Part shown: positions 6,880-44,485 of the stretch, in pieces | Layout: every line of letters begins with the position of its first letter | Numbering within the stretch: the stretch's first letter is position 1 | Source of the DNA: Escherichia coli | Lineage (GTDB): Bacteria > Pseudomonadota > Gammaproteobacteria > Enterobacterales > Enterobacteriaceae | DNA length: 64,000 nt | NCBI RefSeq assembly: GCF_030013205.1 | Contig: NZ_CP122648.1 | Strand: one strand, 5' to 3' | Made by a program: the position numbers and the translations under genes | The notes under the pieces: generated by a model | What the model saw: the letters and a program-made list of their open reading frames with translations, nothing else | The model's database searches: none | What the model was told of the DNA's origin: nothing

Positions 6880-8124
6880 TTAATTACGCAGGGCGCTATT
6901 TGCCAGACGATCGTCTTCTGCCTGGCAAGCTGCCGCAGTGAATAGCACGTCAGTTGAAGAGTTCAGCGCGGTTTCGCAAGAGTCCTGCAATACGCCGATG
7001 ATAAAGCCGACGGCAACCACCTGCATGGCGATATCGTTCGAAATACCGAACATATTACAGGCCAGTGGGATCAGCAGCAGAGACCCCCCCGCCACGCCGG
7101 ATGCGCCACAGGCACACAGAGAAGCCACTACGCTCAACAGCAGCGCTGTGGGCAGATCGACCGGAATACCCAGCGTATTAACCGCAGCCAGCGTCAACAC
7201 GGTAATGGTGATTGCTGCGCCCGCCATATTGATGGTGGCTCCCAGCGGAATAGAAACGGAATAGGTATCGCGATCCAGATTCAGCTTTTCACACAGCGCC
7301 ATATTCACCGGAATGTTCGCTGCAGAGCTGCGGGTGAAGAAGGCATACACACCGCTTTCACGCAGGCACAGCAGCACCAGCGGGAACGGGTTACGACGAA
7401 TTTTCCACCACACCAGCAATGGGTTAACCACCAGCGCCACCAGTAACATACAGCCAACCAGCACGACCAGCAGTTGCGCGTAGCCCCACAGTGTGGAGAA
7501 ACCGGTGGTTGCCAGGGTAGAAGAAACCAGACCAAAAATACCGATCGGTGCGAAGCGAATGACCAGTTTCACCATAAAGGTGACGGCATTCGACATATCG
7601 TTGACCAGGTTTTTGGTGGTCTCGTTACCGTGACGCAGTGCGAAACCGAGGCCAATTGCCCACACCAGAATCCCGATGTAGTTACCTTTCAGCAGCGCGT
7701 CGATGGGGTTGGAAACCATGCTCATTACCAGCCCGCGCATCACTTCGACAATGCCTGACGGCGGCGAAATATCACCCGCGCTACTGGACAAGTGCAGGGT
7801 AGAAGGGAAGGCAAAACTGAAGACTACTGCGGCCAGAGCAGCAGAGAAGGTGCCCAGCAGATAGAGGAACAAAATAGGGCGGATATTGGTTTTCTGCCCG
7901 TGCTGGTGGTTAGCAATAGATGCCATCACCAGCATCAACACCAGGATGGGGGCAACGGCTTTCAGTGCGCCGACGAACAAAGTACCTAACAGACCAACAG
8001 CTTCCGCCGCGGGTTTTGAGATCCATGCCAGAAGAATCCCCAGAACAAGGCCGACCAGGATTTGTTTTACCAGGCTGCCATGAGCCAGACGCCGGAATAG
8101 CCCCGGTGAACGTTGCGTAGTCAT
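6880..8124 (-). CDS. sstT: Serine/threonine:Na+ symporter SstT
   Basis: 414-aa [37 protein letters not shown]..., DAACS-family transporter composition. Confidence 0.9.
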
Positions 8125-33264: not shown

Positions 33265-33317
33265 CTGATATATAAAAAGAAAAAGGCTGACGATTTCTCG
33301 TCAGCCTTTGCTATGTC

Positions 33318-33362
33318 TGGTGGCCCCTGCTGGACTTGAACCAGCGACCAAGCGATTATGAG
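33318..33362 (-). repeat. 45-bp direct repeat of the tRNA ileX 3' end (island att core, yqjH-proximal side)
   Basis: TGGTGGCCCCTGCTGGACTTGAACCAGCGACCAAGCGATTATGAG is identical to 44410..44454 (3' part of ileX); diverges from the tRNA thereafter. Confidence 0.85.
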
Positions 33363-33471
33363 TTGGTTGATAACCCTTTACTTACAGATAATTAGCGATA
33401 CTTTTCAATACCTTAGTATTTTTTAAAACTACTGTATAAATACCTGTATATACCCCAAAATACTTCTTTAC

Positions 33472-33520
33472 GGTATCCTATAGGTATCCTGGAGCAGAAC
33501 AAGCGATTTTCCAGGATACC
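33472..33520. promoter_or_regulatory. Putative integrase arm-type binding sites (GGTATCC repeats)
   Basis: GGTATCCTATAGGTATCCTGG plus inverted CCAGGATACC just upstream of int; near-identical GGTATCCTATAAGTATCCTGG recurs at 44347..44367 at the other island end. Confidence 0.5.
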
Positions 33521-33543: not shown

Positions 33544-34971
33544 GTGAAATTATTCAGATTCTCTAAAGTAAAAATTGCAGAACTGCCAACGCCGGAACAT
33601 GGACAGGTCGAATATGGTGATACGGAGGTTAACGGGCTGCGTGTCCGTGTAGGTTCGTCTGGTGTGAAAAGTTTCTGCATTTCCCGTAAGCGTAACGGAA
33701 AATTTATTCGTGCAACGCTGGGGCGTTTTCCTGATCTGAGCGTGGATAATGCCAGGGCTAAAGCTATGGAACTCCTTGGCGAAGTCGCCACAACGGGGAT
33801 AAATCCGAACATAGCAAAGCGCACTAACAACAAGGCCATGATAACGCTGAGTAAGGCGATTGACGCCTACGTAAAAAATCGTGGCCACCGCCTGAAACCC
33901 GCCACAGAAAAACAGTACCGCAGCATATTACAGAATTATTCCGGTGACTGGATGGCCCATACCCTCGCCAGTATTTCCCGCGAACGGGTGGAACAACGGC
34001 ATAAGGCCATCACTGATGGGGCTGTATGGTTCGGTGCTGATAAAACCACGTTACGGGCTGGGGTTGGTACAGGAAGCAAGGCACAGGCCGATTTATGGGC
34101 GCGTGCGCTACGTGCTGTGTGTCGGTTTGCGCATGATCATTACCGTGATGATGCGGGTAATACTCTTTTACCGGATCCGCCGACTCTGGTACTGAGCACC
34201 AAGCGCCAGTGGCACGGAACGGTAAGAAAAACGGAACGTATCCGCCTGCATGATTTTCCCCGCTGGTTTGCTGCTGTAGCTGCTGTGCGCGACCAGGGCG
34301 AACAGGAAAGGGATGATATAGCGGTGACGGTATGCGATGCCGTGGAAATGGCGCTTTTTACCGGACTGAGGAAATCAGAAATTTTTGGCCTTACGTGGGA
34401 TCGCGTGAATATGGGCGGTCGTTTTTTCTGGATAGACACCACGAAAAACGGGGATCCGCTCGAATTACCGATTACTGATACGTTGCGGGAAATGTTCCAC
34501 CGCCGACTGAAAATAAAAAACGCTGATGATGTTCTGGTGTTTCCTGGTGTGAAGGGAGTGATTCAGGAAACACGGCACATCATAGACCGGATAAGCGCGG
34601 CTACTGTTCCAGAGTCGAACGATGAAATGCTCTCCCCTGTACCATTCAAATGGCACGATGCACGCCGGACGTTCGGAACGGTTGCCGAACTGGTGGGCGT
34701 GGGCAATTACATCCTCAAGCGCCTGATGAATCACCGTACTATGCGAAGTGCTGACGTAACGCAGGGGTATTTACATTTTGGTGCTGATGAACTGCTGGAG
34801 CCAGCGTCACGGATAGAACGGGCAATTCTGGAACATGCCGGGCTGGTGGAGAGTAAAAAATCTATCGATGCGCAATTGCTTTCCGCACTGGAGAGTATGA
34901 GTGACAGTGAGAAACGCGCATTACTATTTAGTATCGTTAATTCAAATGGTGGTTTGAATGTCAGAAAATAA
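33544..34971 (+). CDS. Tyrosine recombinase / P4-type integrase
   Basis: 475-aa ORF (GTG start at 33544); N-terminal arm-binding-like segment (GLRVRVGSSGVKSFCISRKRNGKFIRATLGRFPDLSVDNARAKAMELL) and C-terminal catalytic region with H-x-x-R and Tyr (WHDARRTFGT...TQGYLHF). Confidence 0.85.
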   Translation: MKLFRFSKVKIAELPTPEHGQVEYGDTEVNGLRVRVGSSGVKSFCISRKRNGKFIRATLGRFPDLSVDNARAKAMELLGEVATTGINPNIAKRTNNKAMITLSKAIDAYVKNRGHRLKPATEKQYRSILQNYSGDWMAHTLASISRERVEQRHKAITDGAVWFGADKTTLRAGVGTGSKAQADLWARALRAVCRFAHDHYRDDAGNTLLPDPPTLVLSTKRQWHGTVRKTERIRLHDFPRWFAAVAAVRDQGEQERDDIAVTVCDAVEMALFTGLRKSEIFGLTWDRVNMGGRFFWIDTTKNGDPLELPITDTLREMFHRRLKIKNADDVLVFPGVKGVIQETRHIIDRISAATVPESNDEMLSPVPFKWHDARRTFGTVAELVGVGNYILKRLMNHRTMRSADVTQGYLHFGADELLEPASRIERAILEHAGLVESKKSIDAQLLSALESMSDSEKRALLFSIVNSNGGLNVRK

Positions 34972-35644
34972 AATCATTGCTGCAATAGAATTTGACCATA
35001 ATGATGCGAAGGATATGAATACTATTGCAGATTATATTAGAGATGAACTGGCGTCTTCTTTTGTAAAAAAAACGATATGCGATATGGCAAATATCACACC
35101 ATCTAAAATGTCTCTGGAGGAGAGATTATCATTATCGTCAGAGATAGAAAATAAGGATTTAAAGGTTAATATTTCTGTATGTGCCGGATATGGAGATGAT
35201 TTTGATAAAAAATTTAATAGTGCATATTCAGAATTCAATGATATTTTGAAAGCTGCCATTATATTTGAAGTTCTTGGTTTCAACAGACTTGCAGATCAGT
35301 TACGTGAAAGATATGCGATTTTAGTGTCGGAGAATTTATTAAAATCAGTACGTGATATAGCTAATGTAAAGAAAATTATCAGTAAAGACCGTAGTAAAGC
35401 AAAGAAAGGAAAAACAAACAGGCATAAATCAACAGCGTTATCTATAGCTTGTAACACTTGGAAAAAATACCCTAATGCCAGTTTACCCGGGCTATCCGCA
35501 GAGATATACGCGCACTTACGCAATAAATGGAATGATGTCCCTGTAGTTGGGACTATAGAGAGATGGCTTAAGGAGTCGGGGATGAATCCAAAATCCCCGC
35601 AAAAAAACAGGGATTTTAAGTTAGTTATTGGAGACAAAGAATAA
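34958..35644 (+). CDS. Hypothetical protein, AT-rich cargo gene (no family recognised)
   Basis: 228-aa ORF MSENKIIAAIEFDHNDAKDMNTIADYIRDE...; start overlaps int stop; markedly AT-rich by eye compared with the rest of the island; Lys-rich central segment. Confidence 0.55.
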   Translation: MSENKIIAAIEFDHNDAKDMNTIADYIRDELASSFVKKTICDMANITPSKMSLEERLSLSSEIENKDLKVNISVCAGYGDDFDKKFNSAYSEFNDILKAAIIFEVLGFNRLADQLRERYAILVSENLLKSVRDIANVKKIISKDRSKAKKGKTNRHKSTALSIACNTWKKYPNASLPGLSAEIYAHLRNKWNDVPVVGTIERWLKESGMNPKSPQKNRDFKLVIGDKE

Positions 35645-35776
35645 ATCCAGTTTTATCCTCTGTAATCCAGATTTCAGCCATGTAAACCAGATATGCGATT
35701 TTGTATCTGGTTTTCCTGTCTTCAAGACTTCCCCATCGCTAAATAACGTATACCTGTTCTTAATCAGAAGTATACG

Positions 35777-35974
35777 GTGATACTCATGCATTTAGAAAAG
35801 ATGACCCGCAAAGAAGCTGCCGAGCATTTGGGGGTAAGTGTCCAGACTCTTGCTAACTGGGCGTGTACTGGCAAGGTAAAAATCCCTTTTCATAAGCTGG
35901 GGCGCAAAGTGCTGTATATGCGCACTGATCTCGATGCTTATCTTGCATCCACTCGCAGAACGCAGACGGTGTAA
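35777..35974 (+). CDS. Excisionase/AlpA-type helix-turn-helix DNA-binding protein
   Basis: MTRKEAAEHLGVSVQTLANWACTGKVKIPFHKLGRKVLYMRTDLDAYLAS fits the excisionase-family HTH pattern; three candidate starts (GTG 35777, ATG 35786, ATG 35801). Confidence 0.7.
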   Translation: MILMHLEKMTRKEAAEHLGVSVQTLANWACTGKVKIPFHKLGRKVLYMRTDLDAYLASTRRTQTV

Positions 35975-36343: not shown

Positions 36344-36443
36344 CATTAAAAATACGCAACCATTAAATACAGCGAAGCCCGGCAGTGCGGGAACACTAAC
36401 CGGGCTTCTAACCACCAACGATAGAAAGCGTATCGAGGTAGCT

Positions 36444-40455: not shown

Positions 40456-40665
40456 GTGAATTGTATTAACGACCTGAACACAGGCGAGGTAAAAGGTGGT
40501 TCCGTTCATCTGGATGCGCAGACCGTTATGCGCCTTAAGCAGTACAGGATCGACCACATAAATCATCATCCTGACCAACCATTACCAGGTGCGGCGCAGA
40601 TTGTCAGACACGCGGTTAACGCGTGGCTTGATAAGAATGGTTTTGCATCTGGGGGGGAGCAATGA
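40456..40665 (+). CDS. Hypothetical small protein (69 aa), translationally coupled to protease-capsid gene
   Basis: GTG start preceded by AAGAGGAAG RBS; stop overlaps start of the 637-aa ORF. Confidence 0.45.
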   Translation: MNCINDLNTGEVKGGSVHLDAQTVMRLKQYRIDHINHHPDQPLPGAAQIVRHAVNAWLDKNGFASGGEQ

Positions 40666-42575
40666 ATCACTGGTACACCATTAAGGCGCTGGGTGTTCGC
40701 GGAGCGGCAGAAATATCCATCTATGAAGAAATTGGCGGCTTCGGTATTACCGCGAAGCAGTTTGCGGAAGACCTGAAAGCCCTGGGCGATGTCTCACATA
40801 TCGACCTGCGGATCCATTCGCCAGGTGGTGACGTGTTTGAAGGCATCGCCATCTATAACCTGTTACGGAATCATCCGGCAGAAATTACGGTTTATATCGA
40901 TGGTGTTGCGGCTTCAATGGCTTCGGTTGTCGCAATGGCTGGCGATCGTGTTGTGATGCCGGAAAACGCCATGATGATGATACATAAGCCGTGGGGTATC
41001 TCTGGCGGAAATGCTGGTGATATGCGTGATTATGCTGATTTGCTGGATAAGGTGGAAACCGTGTTAGTCCCTGCTTATGCCAGAAAAACGGGCAAATCAG
41101 CACAGGAAATTACCGCCATGCTGGAAGATGAAACCTGGATGGACGGGAAAGAATGCCTTAAGCACGGTTTTGCTGATGAATTGTTGCCATCTGTCACAGC
41201 AATGGCGCGAATTGAATCGAAACGCACAGGAGATTTTTCACACATGCCTGAAACCATTAAAGGAATGATTACCCCGCCACAGGGAGCAGCCAATATTGCT
41301 GGTAATGAACAGAAGCGCATCAACGGAATAAGTGAAGTGTTTAGCCTGTTCGGCAGTCGTTACGACGGGATCAAAATGGCGTGCCTGGAGGATGCATCAT
41401 GTACACCGGAGATGGCCCGTGAAAAGTTGTTGAACGAGCTGGGGCGCGAGTCCACGCCATCCAATAAAAATATCCCGACTCATATTTATGCCGGTAACGG
41501 GAACATAACAGGCGATGCAATTCGTCAGGGGCTTTATTCTCGTCTTGGGTATGAACGCCCAGAGCGGGGAAATCCTTACGCGATGATGAGCCTTTTTGAA
41601 ATGGCCCAGGCATCACTAACTGATCGTGGTATCAGTGTTGGCAGTTTTTTAAATCGCTCGCAGGTCGTTAATGCAGCTTTCACACACAGCAGCAGCGATT
41701 TTTCTCATATTCTGGCTGGTGGTGCTGAAAAATCAGTGCTGAAAGGCTGGCAGGACAGCGGCGAAACGTTCCAGAAATGGACGCGTACCGGATCGCTTTC
41801 AAACTTTCATGAAGCAAAGCGCGTTGGTCTGAATGGTTTTTCAAAGCTGGATAAAGTACCGGAAGGTGCGGAATATAAATACATCACCACCAGCGATAAA
41901 GGTGTACCTATTGCGCTGGCCACATACGGTAATATTTTTTCTGTTACCCGTCAGGCCATTATCAACGATGACCTGACCCAGTTAACTACAATCCCCATGG
42001 CGATGGGGCGTGCGGCCGCCAGAACAGTAGGTAATCTGGTTTATCTTCTGTTAACCAGCAACGGCAAATTTACGGATGGTAAAGCGTTATTCCATGCCGA
42101 TCATAAAAATCTTATTGCGAAGGATATGGACATGGTGGGGCTTGATGAAGCCCGTAAGCTGATGCGCCTCCAGGAGGATGCTAACGGCGACTCACTGAAT
42201 ATTACCCCTGCTTTTGTTCTGGTCCCTGCCGCGCTGGAATCTGCCGCGCGTCGCGCCATTCTGTCATCGTCATCAGTCTTTCCGGTTGGTGATGAGAGCA
42301 CTATCAATCAGAACCCCGGCATCATTAACGTGGTGAAAGATATGGCAGAAGTAATTGTTGAGCCACGTCTTGATAAGGCCAATAGCAAGGAATGGTATGT
42401 AGCCGCAGCTAAGGGGATGGACACAATAGAAGTCGCTTATCTTGATGGTATGGATACGCCATATCTTGAGGAGCAGGTGGGCTTTACTGTTGATGGTGTC
42501 GCCTGGAAAGTGCGCATAGATGCAGGTGTCGCGGCCCTCGATTATCGCGGATTACTGAAATCGAGTGGAGCATGA
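40662..42575 (+). CDS. Prohead protease (ClpP/S49-like) fused to a capsid-like C-terminal domain
   Basis: 637-aa ORF; N-terminal IHSPGGDVFEGIAIYN and GVAASMASVVAMAGD resemble the ClpP/S49 serine-protease motifs (cf. lambda gpC DTPGG); C-terminal ~350 aa has no recognised enzyme motif and is interpreted as major capsid by context and composition. Confidence 0.7.
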   Translation: MNHWYTIKALGVRGAAEISIYEEIGGFGITAKQFAEDLKALGDVSHIDLRIHSPGGDVFEGIAIYNLLRNHPAEITVYIDGVAASMASVVAMAGDRVVMPENAMMMIHKPWGISGGNAGDMRDYADLLDKVETVLVPAYARKTGKSAQEITAMLEDETWMDGKECLKHGFADELLPSVTAMARIESKRTGDFSHMPETIKGMITPPQGAANIAGNEQKRINGISEVFSLFGSRYDGIKMACLEDASCTPEMAREKLLNELGRESTPSNKNIPTHIYAGNGNITGDAIRQGLYSRLGYERPERGNPYAMMSLFEMAQASLTDRGISVGSFLNRSQVVNAAFTHSSSDFSHILAGGAEKSVLKGWQDSGETFQKWTRTGSLSNFHEAKRVGLNGFSKLDKVPEGAEYKYITTSDKGVPIALATYGNIFSVTRQAIINDDLTQLTTIPMAMGRAAARTVGNLVYLLLTSNGKFTDGKALFHADHKNLIAKDMDMVGLDEARKLMRLQEDANGDSLNITPAFVLVPAALESAARRAILSSSSVFPVGDESTINQNPGIINVVKDMAEVIVEPRLDKANSKEWYVAAAKGMDTIEVAYLDGMDTPYLEEQVGFTVDGVAWKVRIDAGVAALDYRGLLKSSGA

Positions 42576-44367: not shown

Positions 44368-44409
44368 TAAAGCAAGATAGTTTGGATACATCTGTAATTC
44401 ATTGAAATC

Positions 44410-44485
44410 TGGTGGCCCCTGCTGGACTTGAACCAGCGACCAAGCGATTATGAGTCGCCTGCTCTAACCACTGAGCTAAGGGGCC
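44410..44485 (-). tRNA. ileX: tRNA-Ile (anticodon CAU, lysidine-modified isoleucine tRNA)
   Basis: Reverse complement reads GGCCCCTTAGCTCAGTGGTTAGAGCAGGCGACTCATAATCGCTTGGTCGCTGGTTCAAGTCCAGCAGGGGCCACCA: 76 nt, CAT anticodon in loop, encoded CCA end; canonical position next to mug. Confidence 0.9.

Follow-up and report, generated by a model that had tools for sequence, protein, structure and literature searches.

AlpA, Vis of P4, Xis of lambda, Cox of P2, and Apl of 186 are encoded beside integrases and bind multiple phased repeats close to promoters or att sites. The AlpA protein of Gram-negative PICIs is a helper-induced activator, described in a report that left its inducer and any repressor unresolved (PMC6092414). 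Stl of SaPIs and Rpr of PICIs, the master repressors of Gram-positive PICIs, are satellite-encoded proteins that adjoin int at the boundary of the induction and lytic genes. In each, one domain binds DNA and another, diversified domain recognizes helper proteins, and both couple the satellite cycle to the helper (PMC6092414, PMC6695447). PICIs and P4 also have hotspots (the 5' accessory region and psu-int, respectively) that lie beside int, are AT rich, and hold genes with no assigned function; related elements carry unrelated systems at these positions (PMC11364771, PMC9122126). Here, we compare with these systems a gene, called X, of which we found no description in the literature.

The window, a 64,000-nucleotide stretch of Escherichia coli DNA, contains an 11-kb EcCICFT073-like island inserted at a tRNA gene (44410-44485, minus strand). 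The left end of the island is marked by attL (33316..33363), a 48-bp direct copy of the tRNA gene's 3' part that repeats positions 44408-44455 exactly. The gene content is that of a Gram-negative PICI, a class for which the size criterion is about 10 to 15 kb: int is accompanied by a regulator of the alpA type and by a replication module with a primase, there is a specific att site, and genes for tails or lysis are absent. The island and EcCICFT073 share the backbone order YlcI/YnfO, Icd-like, DUF4222, primase, SSB, and capsid gene, with DNA identity of 72 to 91% in several backbone genes. Unlike the window, however, EcCICFT073 has a 409-aa Int, an AlpA that is only 18% identical, and an int-alpA spacer of 366 bp that contains ACAACG repeats and no gene. 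The int-X-alpA cassette in the window is a module distinct from that of EcCICFT073. Since EcCICFT073 lacks X and yet is helper inducible, X is not a general sensor of Gram-negative PICIs. EcCICFT073 also has another repeat array 3' of int, so that repeats at this place need not belong to X.

Gene X is ORF228 (34958-35644, plus strand), which encodes 228 aa and is listed in RefSeq as "hypothetical protein," an entry that comes from a strain with a 100% identical ORF. The preliminary description of this DNA had presented X as AT rich relative to its neighbors, overlapping the integrase stop, and lysine rich in its center, and all three features were borne out. The GC content of X is 0.342 (0.314 in the N-terminal part, the lowest within the gene, and 0.383 in the C-terminal part), or 34% against about 50% for the neighbors (0.504 for int and 0.487 for the AlpA-like gene), and that of the entire island is 0.474. 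The ATG start codon, which is preceded by GGTGG, is at 34958, within int, and the int stop codon is at 34969-34971; with the resulting 14-nt overlap, cotranscription of X with int is plausible. Terminator-like sites were looked for in the interval spanning int, X, and the HTH gene, and none was found. Residues 136 to 160 include ten basic residues (8 K, 2 R) and a single acidic one (D), giving a net charge of +9. Because homologues of X occur throughout the Enterobacterales, with E values down to 1e-70, and because the pN/pS of X is 0.26 (relative to one 97.4% identical allele), sequence comparison indicates that X is a real gene on which purifying selection acts.

The neighbors of X are constant. 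In every related island examined, X is preceded by an integrase of ~470 aa, with the X start in most cases overlapping or adjoining the int stop, and is followed by an HTH gene of the AlpA-like type. The invariant 5' partner in the window is a 475-aa tyrosine integrase (33544..34971, plus strand; PHROG 1, E = 2.8e-38), whose homologues have Arm-DNA-bind_3 plus Phage_integrase domains. The invariant 3' partner is an AlpA-like HTH_17 gene (35786..35974, plus strand; PHROG 66, excisionase/regulator, E = 2e-10), presumed to encode the satellite master activator; its start at 35786 is that given by RefSeq, and its homologues are annotated HTH_17. At all 29 loci with upstream DNA, the end of a homologous Int (55 to 100% identity) either meets the X start or precedes it by no more than about 30 nt. 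The order int, X, HTH_17/AlpA was found in 14/14 neighborhoods having gene or feature tables, and an HTH_17/AlpA gene lies 3' of X in 15/15 tabled neighborhoods (E. coli, Salmonella, Rouxiella, and metagenomes), one of which, L042, is cut upstream of X. Among the E. coli genomes bearing a window-type integrase, 81 of 86 (57 + 24) contain X. These data establish X as a core gene of the int-X-alpA integration/regulation cassette of one Gram-negative PICI lineage.

This constancy is at odds with the preliminary description, which had taken X for laterally acquired cargo and had proposed looking for different genes at the same slot in related islands. No different gene was found there; the same X family occupies the slot at all loci examined. 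A function conserved in all related islands at an invariable slot had been named in advance as the pattern that would speak against cargo, and it is the pattern observed. Likewise, no known defense gene was seen between int and alpA, with PADLOC negative, and the loci examined held no unrelated genes at this slot of the kind that defines hotspot cargo. X resembles the PICI and P4 hotspots in lying beside int, in being AT rich, and in having no assigned function but differs from them in that the slot holds one family, with a conserved domain that matches neighboring DNA sites.

The X family comprises about 170 representatives at 50% identity, and the PICI lineage that carries it is present in E. 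coli (ETEC, APEC, and O111 strains among them), as well as in Salmonella, Klebsiella, Citrobacter, and Pectobacterium. When one genome was scanned for each species, no relative was detected, and a tblastn search of 50,697 phage records found X in none. Pfam scans with the X protein and two alignments gave nothing at E <= 0.001, including the HTH_17, Phage_AlpA, and Exc models, and neither PHROGs nor NCBIfam contains a family for X. In PADLOC-DB, 0 families matched X at E <= 1, which places X outside the known antiphage defense families of that database. A PDB sequence search gave chance-level matches only, a Foldseek search of PDB with the full X model gave nothing, and no homology to Stl or Rpr proteins was detected via PHROG, Pfam, NCBIfam, or solved structures. 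The earlier statement that X has no recognizable catalytic motif agrees with these results: no such motif was found, and X has no match in Pfam, PHROG, NCBIfam, or PADLOC.

The X protein is predicted to have four parts, all encoded on the plus strand. Residues 1 to 85 (34958..35212, the 3' limit being approximate) make up a hypervariable helical module, the proposed sensor, with helices predicted at 20 to 37, 40 to 43, and 53 to 65. Residues 86 to 128 (35213..35341) are predicted to form a semiconserved helical hairpin (helices 91 to 106 and 109 to 127, pLDDT 85 to 92), which is possibly an oligomerization element; Gly107 at its turn is at least 90% conserved in alignment A1 and invariant in alignment A2. 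A basic helix or arm follows at residues 129 to 155 (KKIISKDRSKAKKGKTNRH; 35342..35422), where the breakpoints of domain-swap recombination lie. The conserved domain at the C terminus spans residues 156 to 228 (35423..35641), and its predicted topology is that of a winged helix. The part conserved across the family is the C-terminal ~90 aa (the basic helix plus the predicted winged helix), and it is C terminal in all 170 representatives. The winged-helix criterion is the order a1-b1-a2-a3-b2-b3, with a3 as the recognition helix; the prediction for X gives a1 (155 to 170), b1 (residue 174), a2 (176 to 190), a3 (197 to 207), a loop, and then one bridge residue (217) within a conserved FKLV, and the +9 segment precedes this series. 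On the basis of this model, X is probably a modular DNA-binding protein composed of a swappable N-terminal module, a hairpin, a basic helix, and a predicted C-terminal winged helix.

X shares with AlpA, P4 Vis, lambda Xis, P2 Cox, and 186 Apl an a2-a3-wing pattern, L.xE....L ... T..xW.K.sG..P..K...F.LV, and two members of the X family gave faint matches to Exc. However, X is 3 to 4 times larger than AlpA/Xis-type proteins, to which it adds a further helix, a basic arm, and an extensive N-terminal part, and, unlike those regulators, it coexists with a true AlpA-like gene. We considered X as a member of the AlpA/Xis family and dropped this assignment: an hhalign comparison of the X C-terminal profile with the profile of the AlpA-like proteins of the same islands gave a probability of 2%, there was no Pfam match, and the a3-plus-wing stretch matched lambda Xis only weakly, at E about 1.

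Otherwise near-identical islands carry unrelated X N-terminal parts (alignments A1 and A2). The swap breakpoints in X are at nt 415 and nt 486, at the domain boundary, and the match of strains 181.1 and EC21Z-144 to X is limited to nt 415-687. The window type and the 181.1 type do not differ in the C-terminal domain or in the DNA sites described below. Between X and the 97.4% identical allele, all 18 substitutions are in codons 10 to 143 and 0 are in codons 144 to 228. These alignments indicate that the only varying element at the slot is the N-terminal part of X, exchanged at the domain boundary. Such variability keeps alive a role related to the helper phage, in which the N-terminal part would be a sensing or regulatory module and not interchangeable cargo.

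Downstream of X, the preliminary description had reported an inverted repeat, ACCAGATA-N10-TATCTGGT. The repeat exists, but it had been placed about 6 nt to the left of its true position, 35686-35711, and its arms can be lengthened to AAACCAGATA/TATCTGGTTT. The repeat makes up half of a larger array, which begins at the X stop codon and consists of four ~9-bp sites with a phasing of 20 to 21 bp. Site 1 (AATCCAGTTTT; 35644..35654, plus strand) overlaps the last base of this codon, and site 2 (AATCCAGATTT; 35664..35674, plus strand) lies 20 bp past site 1. Site 3 (AAACCAGATA; 35684..35693, plus strand) is the left arm of the inverted repeat, and site 4 (35704..35713, minus strand; TATCTGGTTT on the plus strand) is its right arm. 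The motif AAWCCAGWT has 7 matches in the 64-kb window compared with 1.8 expected, a number reached in 0 of 100 shuffles, and four of the seven fall within 70 bp (35644, 35664, 35684, and 35705). Across lineages, AAATCnnGTTTTAC is kept and the spacers vary. Most lineages checked have three to five sites, about 20 to 22 bp apart, with the first within a few nucleotides of the stop codon; the motif changes from clade to clade, with the sites conserved and the spacers not. The 20- to 21-bp spacing contrasts with the spacing of about 10 bp for AlpA/Xis-type proteins. Neither att arm contains a perfect copy of the motif, and the array is 2.3 kb from attL. One-mismatch copies (for example, at 33516, 20 bp upstream of int) were set aside, as they are too frequent by chance to be informative.

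The clade motifs are AACCAGATA for clade A, TAGCTGGCTA for clade B, TTAAGTACTT for L029, TAGCSGCTA for L041, and TCATA for L043. When the window-type loci L011 to L013 were compared with L002, the AlpA core was 91% identical, whereas the X C-terminal domain was 33% and the sites were 26 to 27% identical. L018 and L029 have unrelated motifs, although only about 3 differences, counted by eye, separate the AlpA cores of these two loci. When AlpA was controlled for, the partial rank correlation between the sites and the X C-terminal domain was 0.42; when the X C-terminal domain was controlled for, that between the sites and AlpA was 0.13. Between the window and L004, the N-terminal part is swapped without a change in the sites; sites unchanged by N-terminal swaps are as expected if DNA specificity resides in the X C-terminal domain. 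With only about 5 to 6 independent clade-level switches as their basis, these comparisons indicate that the site sequence tracks the X C-terminal clade and not the AlpA-like protein or the integrase. Two other binders were considered and rejected. AlpA was rejected because loci with unrelated sites have almost the same AlpA recognition helix and wing. Arm-type binding by Int at the array was rejected because the integrases of L011 to L013 and L002, each 97 to 99% identical to that of the window, are paired with unrelated sites and because of the distance to attL.

Two observations count against DNA recognition by X as the source of this covariation. The X C-terminal coding region adjoins the sites, so covariation could be hitchhiking. 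The putative recognition helix barely differs between clades with very different sites (GTIERWLKESG versus GTIKVWLKESG). An IMG/VR search with the clade-A inverted repeat found no recombinants that break or confirm the link between the X C-terminal domain and the sites. Thirteen of its matches are already known loci, in which the repeat is fixed 44 to 47 bp from the stop codon, and the other 17 are in unrelated contexts, have no X domain, and include several terminator-like hairpins.

The conservation and fixed position of X, its mosaic modularity, and the presence of a phased array that matches its C-terminal clade are established. We tentatively propose, and give somewhat less than an even chance, that X is a helper-sensing regulator of alpA, probably a repressor, with Stl-like logic in a new protein family. 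DNA binding by X, its repressor sign, and helper sensing by the N-terminal module are what we infer. In the resting island, X would be produced together with the integrase, and its C-terminal domain would bind the four ~9-bp sites just upstream of the alpA promoter region, which the 20- to 21-bp phasing would put on one face of the DNA. Bound X would keep alpA off and hence excision, replication, and packaging off. Recognition of a helper-phage protein by the variable N-terminal module would release X, and AlpA would then switch itself on. X as proposed would thus share with Stl and Rpr the features described above, but X has no sequence or fold relationship to Stl. Stl has an N-terminal HTH and is divergent from the genes that it controls, whereas X has a C-terminal winged-helix-like domain and is codirectional with alpA. 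X, unlike Stl, would target the promoter region of an activator gene, alpA, with repression as the presumed outcome. The wider claim, that X is the helper sensor and master gatekeeper of this PICI lineage, with plug-in N-terminal modules that retarget helpers and a C-terminal specificity codiversified with the operator array, is doubtful at present.

No sigma-70-like promoter was detected at the array, and any plausible core promoter is downstream of the sites and not covered by them. With the sites in this position, the sign of regulation by X may be either. A second, unlikely explanation is that X is a helper-dependent coactivator of alpA, which, bound upstream of -35, would recruit RNA polymerase or bend DNA once the N-terminal module holds a helper protein. 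The location of the four sites upstream of any plausible core promoter, at positions typical of class I activators, and the failure to detect a strong promoter at the sites are consistent with this explanation, as is the finding that alpA promoters of Gram-negative PICIs are activator dependent and helper induced (PMC6092414). However, X is apparently made constitutively with Int, and a repressor is the simpler off state for a self-activating gene.

A third explanation, which we regard as improbable, is that X is an accessory factor of its integrase clade (a recombination directionality or architectural factor, as are Xis, Cox, and Apl) or that the sites are bound by a Cox-like or Xis-like activator of the helper or by a host factor and travel with the X C-terminal sequence. 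Xis and Cox proteins bind phased direct repeats, and P2 Cox acts at P4 PLL. The strict linkage of the two genes, with the X start overlapping or abutting the int stop, the weak resemblance of the a3-plus-wing stretch to lambda Xis, the faint Exc matches of the two family members, and the array that follows int in EcCICFT073 without X are in favor of this explanation. An accessory factor would nonetheless have sites 2.3 kb from attL and no perfect motif copy in the att arms, and a directionality factor made at 1:1 with Int would defeat directionality. A helper-specific binder should have sites that change with the N-terminal module, yet they are constant between the window and L004. Equally improbable is the earlier view that X is an antiphage or helper-interference protein of the PICI 5' accessory region, in which the N-terminal module would recognize or attack phage components and the C-terminal domain would serve autoregulation or targeting: PICIs are reported to have immune systems at their 5' or 3' ends (PMC11364771), the module is mosaic and AT rich, as expected in an arms race, and X is absent from phages, but the slot was never seen to hold another gene and has the same family in all related islands, X has no PADLOC match and no enzymatic or toxin-like motif, and the conserved domain and the phased sites ahead of alpA would be left unexplained.

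As a helper-sensing regulator of alpA, X would be a concrete candidate helper sensor for one widespread Gram-negative PICI lineage. The family that it represents, about 170 sequence clusters without annotation, has a putative operator that is defined and candidate sensor modules that have been swapped in nature. If this proposal is true, Gram-negative satellites independently evolved helper sensing through a modular regulator dedicated to it, and natural chimeras could be used to map which phage proteins trigger which islands; it would also bear on engineered PICI "drones" and on how virulence and defense genes spread. Should the proposal be wrong, the conserved partnership of the X family with one integrase clade would still have to be explained.

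Between the array and the AlpA-like gene lies a conserved hairpin, CGTATAC-N16-GTATACG (35747..35781, plus strand), whose 3' arm enters the Shine-Dalgarno sequence (GGTGA) of that gene. RNAalifold analysis of 16 lineages gave 7 pairs for this hairpin, 3 of which have compensatory changes.

The gene reported in the preliminary description between the integrase gene and an AlpA-like HTH gene was confirmed at 34958 to 35644 on the plus strand, and is here called ORF228 for its 228 amino acids. Its GC content was 34.2%, with int at 50.4% and the AlpA-like gene at 48.7%; it overlaps int by 14 nt with its own GGTGG upstream, and its Lys-rich segment corresponds to a basic stretch with a net charge of +9 at residues 136 to 160. 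The inverted repeat described downstream is likewise real and lies at 35686 to 35711, slightly to the right of the position first given. No terminator-like site was found before the HTH gene. Full-length homologues, with matches up to E = 1e-70, were found in Citrobacter, Klebsiella, Pectobacterium, Phytobacter, and Salmonella, and comparison with an allele of 97.4% identity gave a pN/pS of 0.26. Since full-length homologues occur in five genera and pN/pS is this low, ORF228 is, on sequence grounds, a genuine gene. No curated family covers it, and a literature search found no description of it.

ORF228 lies in an 11.1-kb island in the E. coli chromosome, with nfeF (yqjH) on one side and a tRNA gene on the other. 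Both ends are marked by an exact 48-bp direct repeat of the 3' part of the tRNA (33316 to 33363 and 44408 to 44455), and the intact tRNA gene is at the end distant from int. ARAGORN called this gene tRNA-Met (CAT), whereas RefSeq called it tRNA-Ile, a call that we take to be consistent with ileX and lysidine modification. The island encodes, in order, a 475-aa tyrosine integrase, ORF228, the AlpA-like HTH_17 protein, YlcI/YnfO (minus strand), an Icd-like protein, a hypothetical protein, DUF4222, a D5-type primase, a second hypothetical protein, SSB, a ClpP-protease/major-capsid fusion, and DUF1441. The gene order is shared with EcCICFT073, the characterised Gram-negative phage-inducible chromosomal island (PICI) of CFT073. 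DNA identity between the two islands is 72 to 91% in the regions of the Icd-like gene, the primase, SSB, and the right end, and is absent from int, ORF228, and alpA; in EcCICFT073 the Int is 409 aa long, the spacer is 366 bp and gene-free, and the AlpA is only 18% identical to the window's AlpA-like protein. Because the identity is confined to regions outside it, the int-ORF228-alpA stretch is, by this comparison, a separate cassette type carried by a common PICI backbone. The protease-capsid fusion is a single 637-aa protein (40662 to 42575) that joins a ClpP-like prohead protease to a major capsid protein, with the DUF1441 gene next to it, and neither a portal nor a large terminase was found among the genes of the window satellite. 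Capsid genes are frequent in Gram-negative PICIs and yet are reported to be dispensable for transfer (PMC10111431).

The preliminary description had treated ORF228 as laterally acquired cargo and had proposed a search for different genes at its slot. Among complete E. coli genomes, 86 of 5,426 were found to have a window-type integrase; 57 of these 86 carry a window-type ORF228, and 24 carry a second slot type unconnected to the first by DNA search. The slot gene was translated from four islands whose integrase match ends short of the 3' end, and all four encode ORF228 homologues that share the C-terminal ~85 residues and fall into two subtypes. Outside E. coli (Salmonella, Rouxiella, and metagenomes), all neighbourhoods consist of Int (Arm-DNA-bind_3 plus Phage_integrase, ~470 aa), an ORF228 family gene, and HTH_17/AlpA, the shortest contig (L042) being cut before int, and the replication modules downstream differ. 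Wherever upstream sequence was available (29 of 29 loci), the family gene is preceded by a homologous integrase (55 to 100% identity) that stops at, or at most ~30 nt before, its start. When 1.84 billion proteins, clustered at 50% identity, were searched with a profile of the C-terminal domain, 170 representatives were retrieved; all have the domain at the C-terminus, and most are 180 to 350 aa long. No family member was found in 50,697 phage records. The same family thus fills the slot in the related islands examined, and the cargo view gives way, for the gene as a whole, to a conserved function in an invariant slot. At least one complete E. coli genome has five copies of both integrase and ORF228, the highest number of places per genome, which points to repeated insertion, or to amplification, of islands of this type.

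Alignment of the homologues revealed a nearly invariant C-terminal block, KAKKGKTNRH..AL.IA..TW.KYPNAS..GL..EI...L...WND.P...T...WLK.SG.NP..K.KNR.FKLV, and several mutually unrelated N-terminal versions, with a helical hairpin carrying a near-invariant glycine (G107) in between. Otherwise near-identical islands differ in the N-terminal part only; the match of strain 181.1 to the window gene begins at nt 415, and that of strain KC-Dl-1 to the type-B gene begins at nt 486. Between ORF228 and its 97.4% identical allele, all 18 substitutions are in codons 10 to 143 and none are in 144 to 228. The full-length AlphaFold model was all helical (pLDDT 82), and its long helix at 129 to 170 carries the basic stretch. 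The C-terminal domain, modelled from a 74-sequence alignment (pLDDT 77.5), has predicted helices at 155 to 170, 176 to 190, and 197 to 207 and bridge residues at 174 (in the invariant A-S) and 217 (in the conserved FKLV tail), an order that approximates a canonical winged helix. Residues 195 to 220 matched the lambda Xis recognition helix and wing at chance level only (E about 1), and comparison of the domain's profile with one of the AlpA-like proteins from the islands themselves gave a probability of 2%. For these two reasons, the domain is called winged-helix-like and was not placed in the AlpA/Xis family.

The inverted repeat proved to be the last two sites of a four-site array before alpA: AATCCAGTT at 35644, overlapping the ORF228 stop codon, AATCCAGAT at 35664, AAACCAGAT at 35684, and an inverted copy at 35705, spaced by 20, 20, and 21 bp. 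The motif AAWCCAGWT has 7 matches in the 64-kb window versus 1.8 expected. When the spacers of 20 lineages were laid out in rows of 21 nt, most had three to five sites, the first at or a few nucleotides from the stop codon, with a motif that varies by clade. Clade A, to which ORF228 belongs, has AACCAGATA / ATCYRGTTT; clade B has four copies of TAGCTGGCTA, all direct; and three further loci have TTAAGTACTT (L029), TAGCSGCTA (L041), and a TCATA-type motif (L043). Within clade A the sites are kept and the spacers vary, and all six spacer substitutions of the 97.4% allele fall outside the sites. In EcCICFT073 (L040, 9188 to 9247), six ACAACG repeats with 10-bp spacing directly follow the int stop codon; these may correspond to the phased sites.

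Across the compared loci, the AlpA-like protein is almost invariant from the recognition helix onward. Between the window-type loci L011 to L013 and locus L002, AlpA identity is 91% across the final 55 aa, versus 26 to 27% for the site regions and 33% for the ORF228 C-terminal domains, and the integrases of both are 97 to 99% identical to the window's. Loci L018 and L029 have unrelated motifs, and their AlpA cores differ at about three positions (by eye). Over 300 locus pairs, the rank correlation of the sites with ORF228 C-terminal similarity was 0.42 when AlpA was controlled, and that with AlpA was 0.13 when ORF228 was controlled. The island of strain 181.1 (L004) combines a different N-terminal module with the C-terminal domain and sites of the window, so that an N-terminal swap leaves the sites unaltered. 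That island also has an extra small HTH regulator gene (7560 to 7763) directly after its AlpA-like gene. In these alignments, the ORF228 C-terminal domain is the only one among the three adjacent genes to change with the sites, a co-variation supported by some five or six independent switches. Hitch-hiking of the sites is possible because the coding sequence of the domain abuts them; an IMG/VR search with the clade-A repeat found no recombinant by which the linkage could be judged.

The alpA gene of Gram-negative PICIs is self-activating and responds to the helper phage rather than to SOS; the published work did not settle what induces it or whether a repressor exists (PMC6092414). In EcCICFT073, int expression is independent of AlpA. 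ORF228, which starts within the end of int, would be made while the island is at rest. It would act at alpA, in front of which lies the sole detectable cluster of putative sites, and its mosaic N-terminal module would meet a helper-phage protein. The preferred explanation is therefore that ORF228 acts as a gatekeeper of alpA, with a logic that would be Stl-like in a family unrelated to Stl. It would be a satellite regulator that carries a sensor module, new in both family and architecture, in a satellite group for which no such regulator is known. Its anatomy and comparative pattern are solid and directly testable; its DNA binding, the sign of its regulation, and its sensing of the helper are inferred. 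Since EcCICFT073 lacks ORF228, the protein is tied to one int-alpA cassette type and is not a universal Gram-negative PICI sensor.

Repression of alpA is the simpler reading. Helper-dependent coactivation has to be taken seriously as well, because every plausible core promoter would lie downstream of the sites and no promoter of the sigma-70 type was detected there. Another possible binder of the sites is a Cox-like or Xis-like activator encoded by the helper, in the way that P2 Cox works at P4 PLL; the ACAACG array of EcCICFT073 follows int without ORF228. Helper-specific sites would, however, be expected to change with a helper-specific N-terminal module, and no such change was seen. The defence or interference role raised in the preliminary description is possible through the N-terminal module, and immune genes are located at PICI 5' ends (PMC11364771), but it leaves the conserved domain, the fixed slot, and the sites unexplained, and PADLOC was negative for ORF228. 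An Int accessory or directionality factor would suit the tight linkage to Int and an Xis-like pattern in ORF228, but attL is 2.3 kb away from the sites and the att arms contain no perfect motif copy.

Between the sites and alpA, a hairpin (CGTATAC-N16-GTATACG, 35747 to 35781) has a 3' arm that reaches into the AlpA-like gene's Shine-Dalgarno sequence. The hairpin is retained in relatives with altered arms (GTATCACC..GGTGATAC, GTGACTCCG..CGGAGTTAC, and GTTTCAC..GTGAAAC), and RNAalifold on 16 lineages gave 7 pairs, 3 of them with compensatory changes. The hairpin could block alpA translation on read-through int-ORF228 transcripts, as in fold-back inhibition, and transcripts beginning inside it would escape the block. 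Just upstream of the Icd-like gene, in a region 90.6% identical to EcCICFT073, the stretch from 36371 to 36443 (minus strand) matches the Rfam model of the SymR antitoxin RNA below threshold (34.8 bits versus a gathering score of 61; E = 0.0015). RNAs of the P1 c4 / P4 CI type control icd-like genes, and this stretch may encode an antisense or immunity RNA of that kind. Between attL and the int start, GGTATCCT (33472), GGTATCCTGGA (33483 to 33493), and an inverted TCCAGGATACC (33510 to 33520) are candidate integrase arm-type or regulatory sites.
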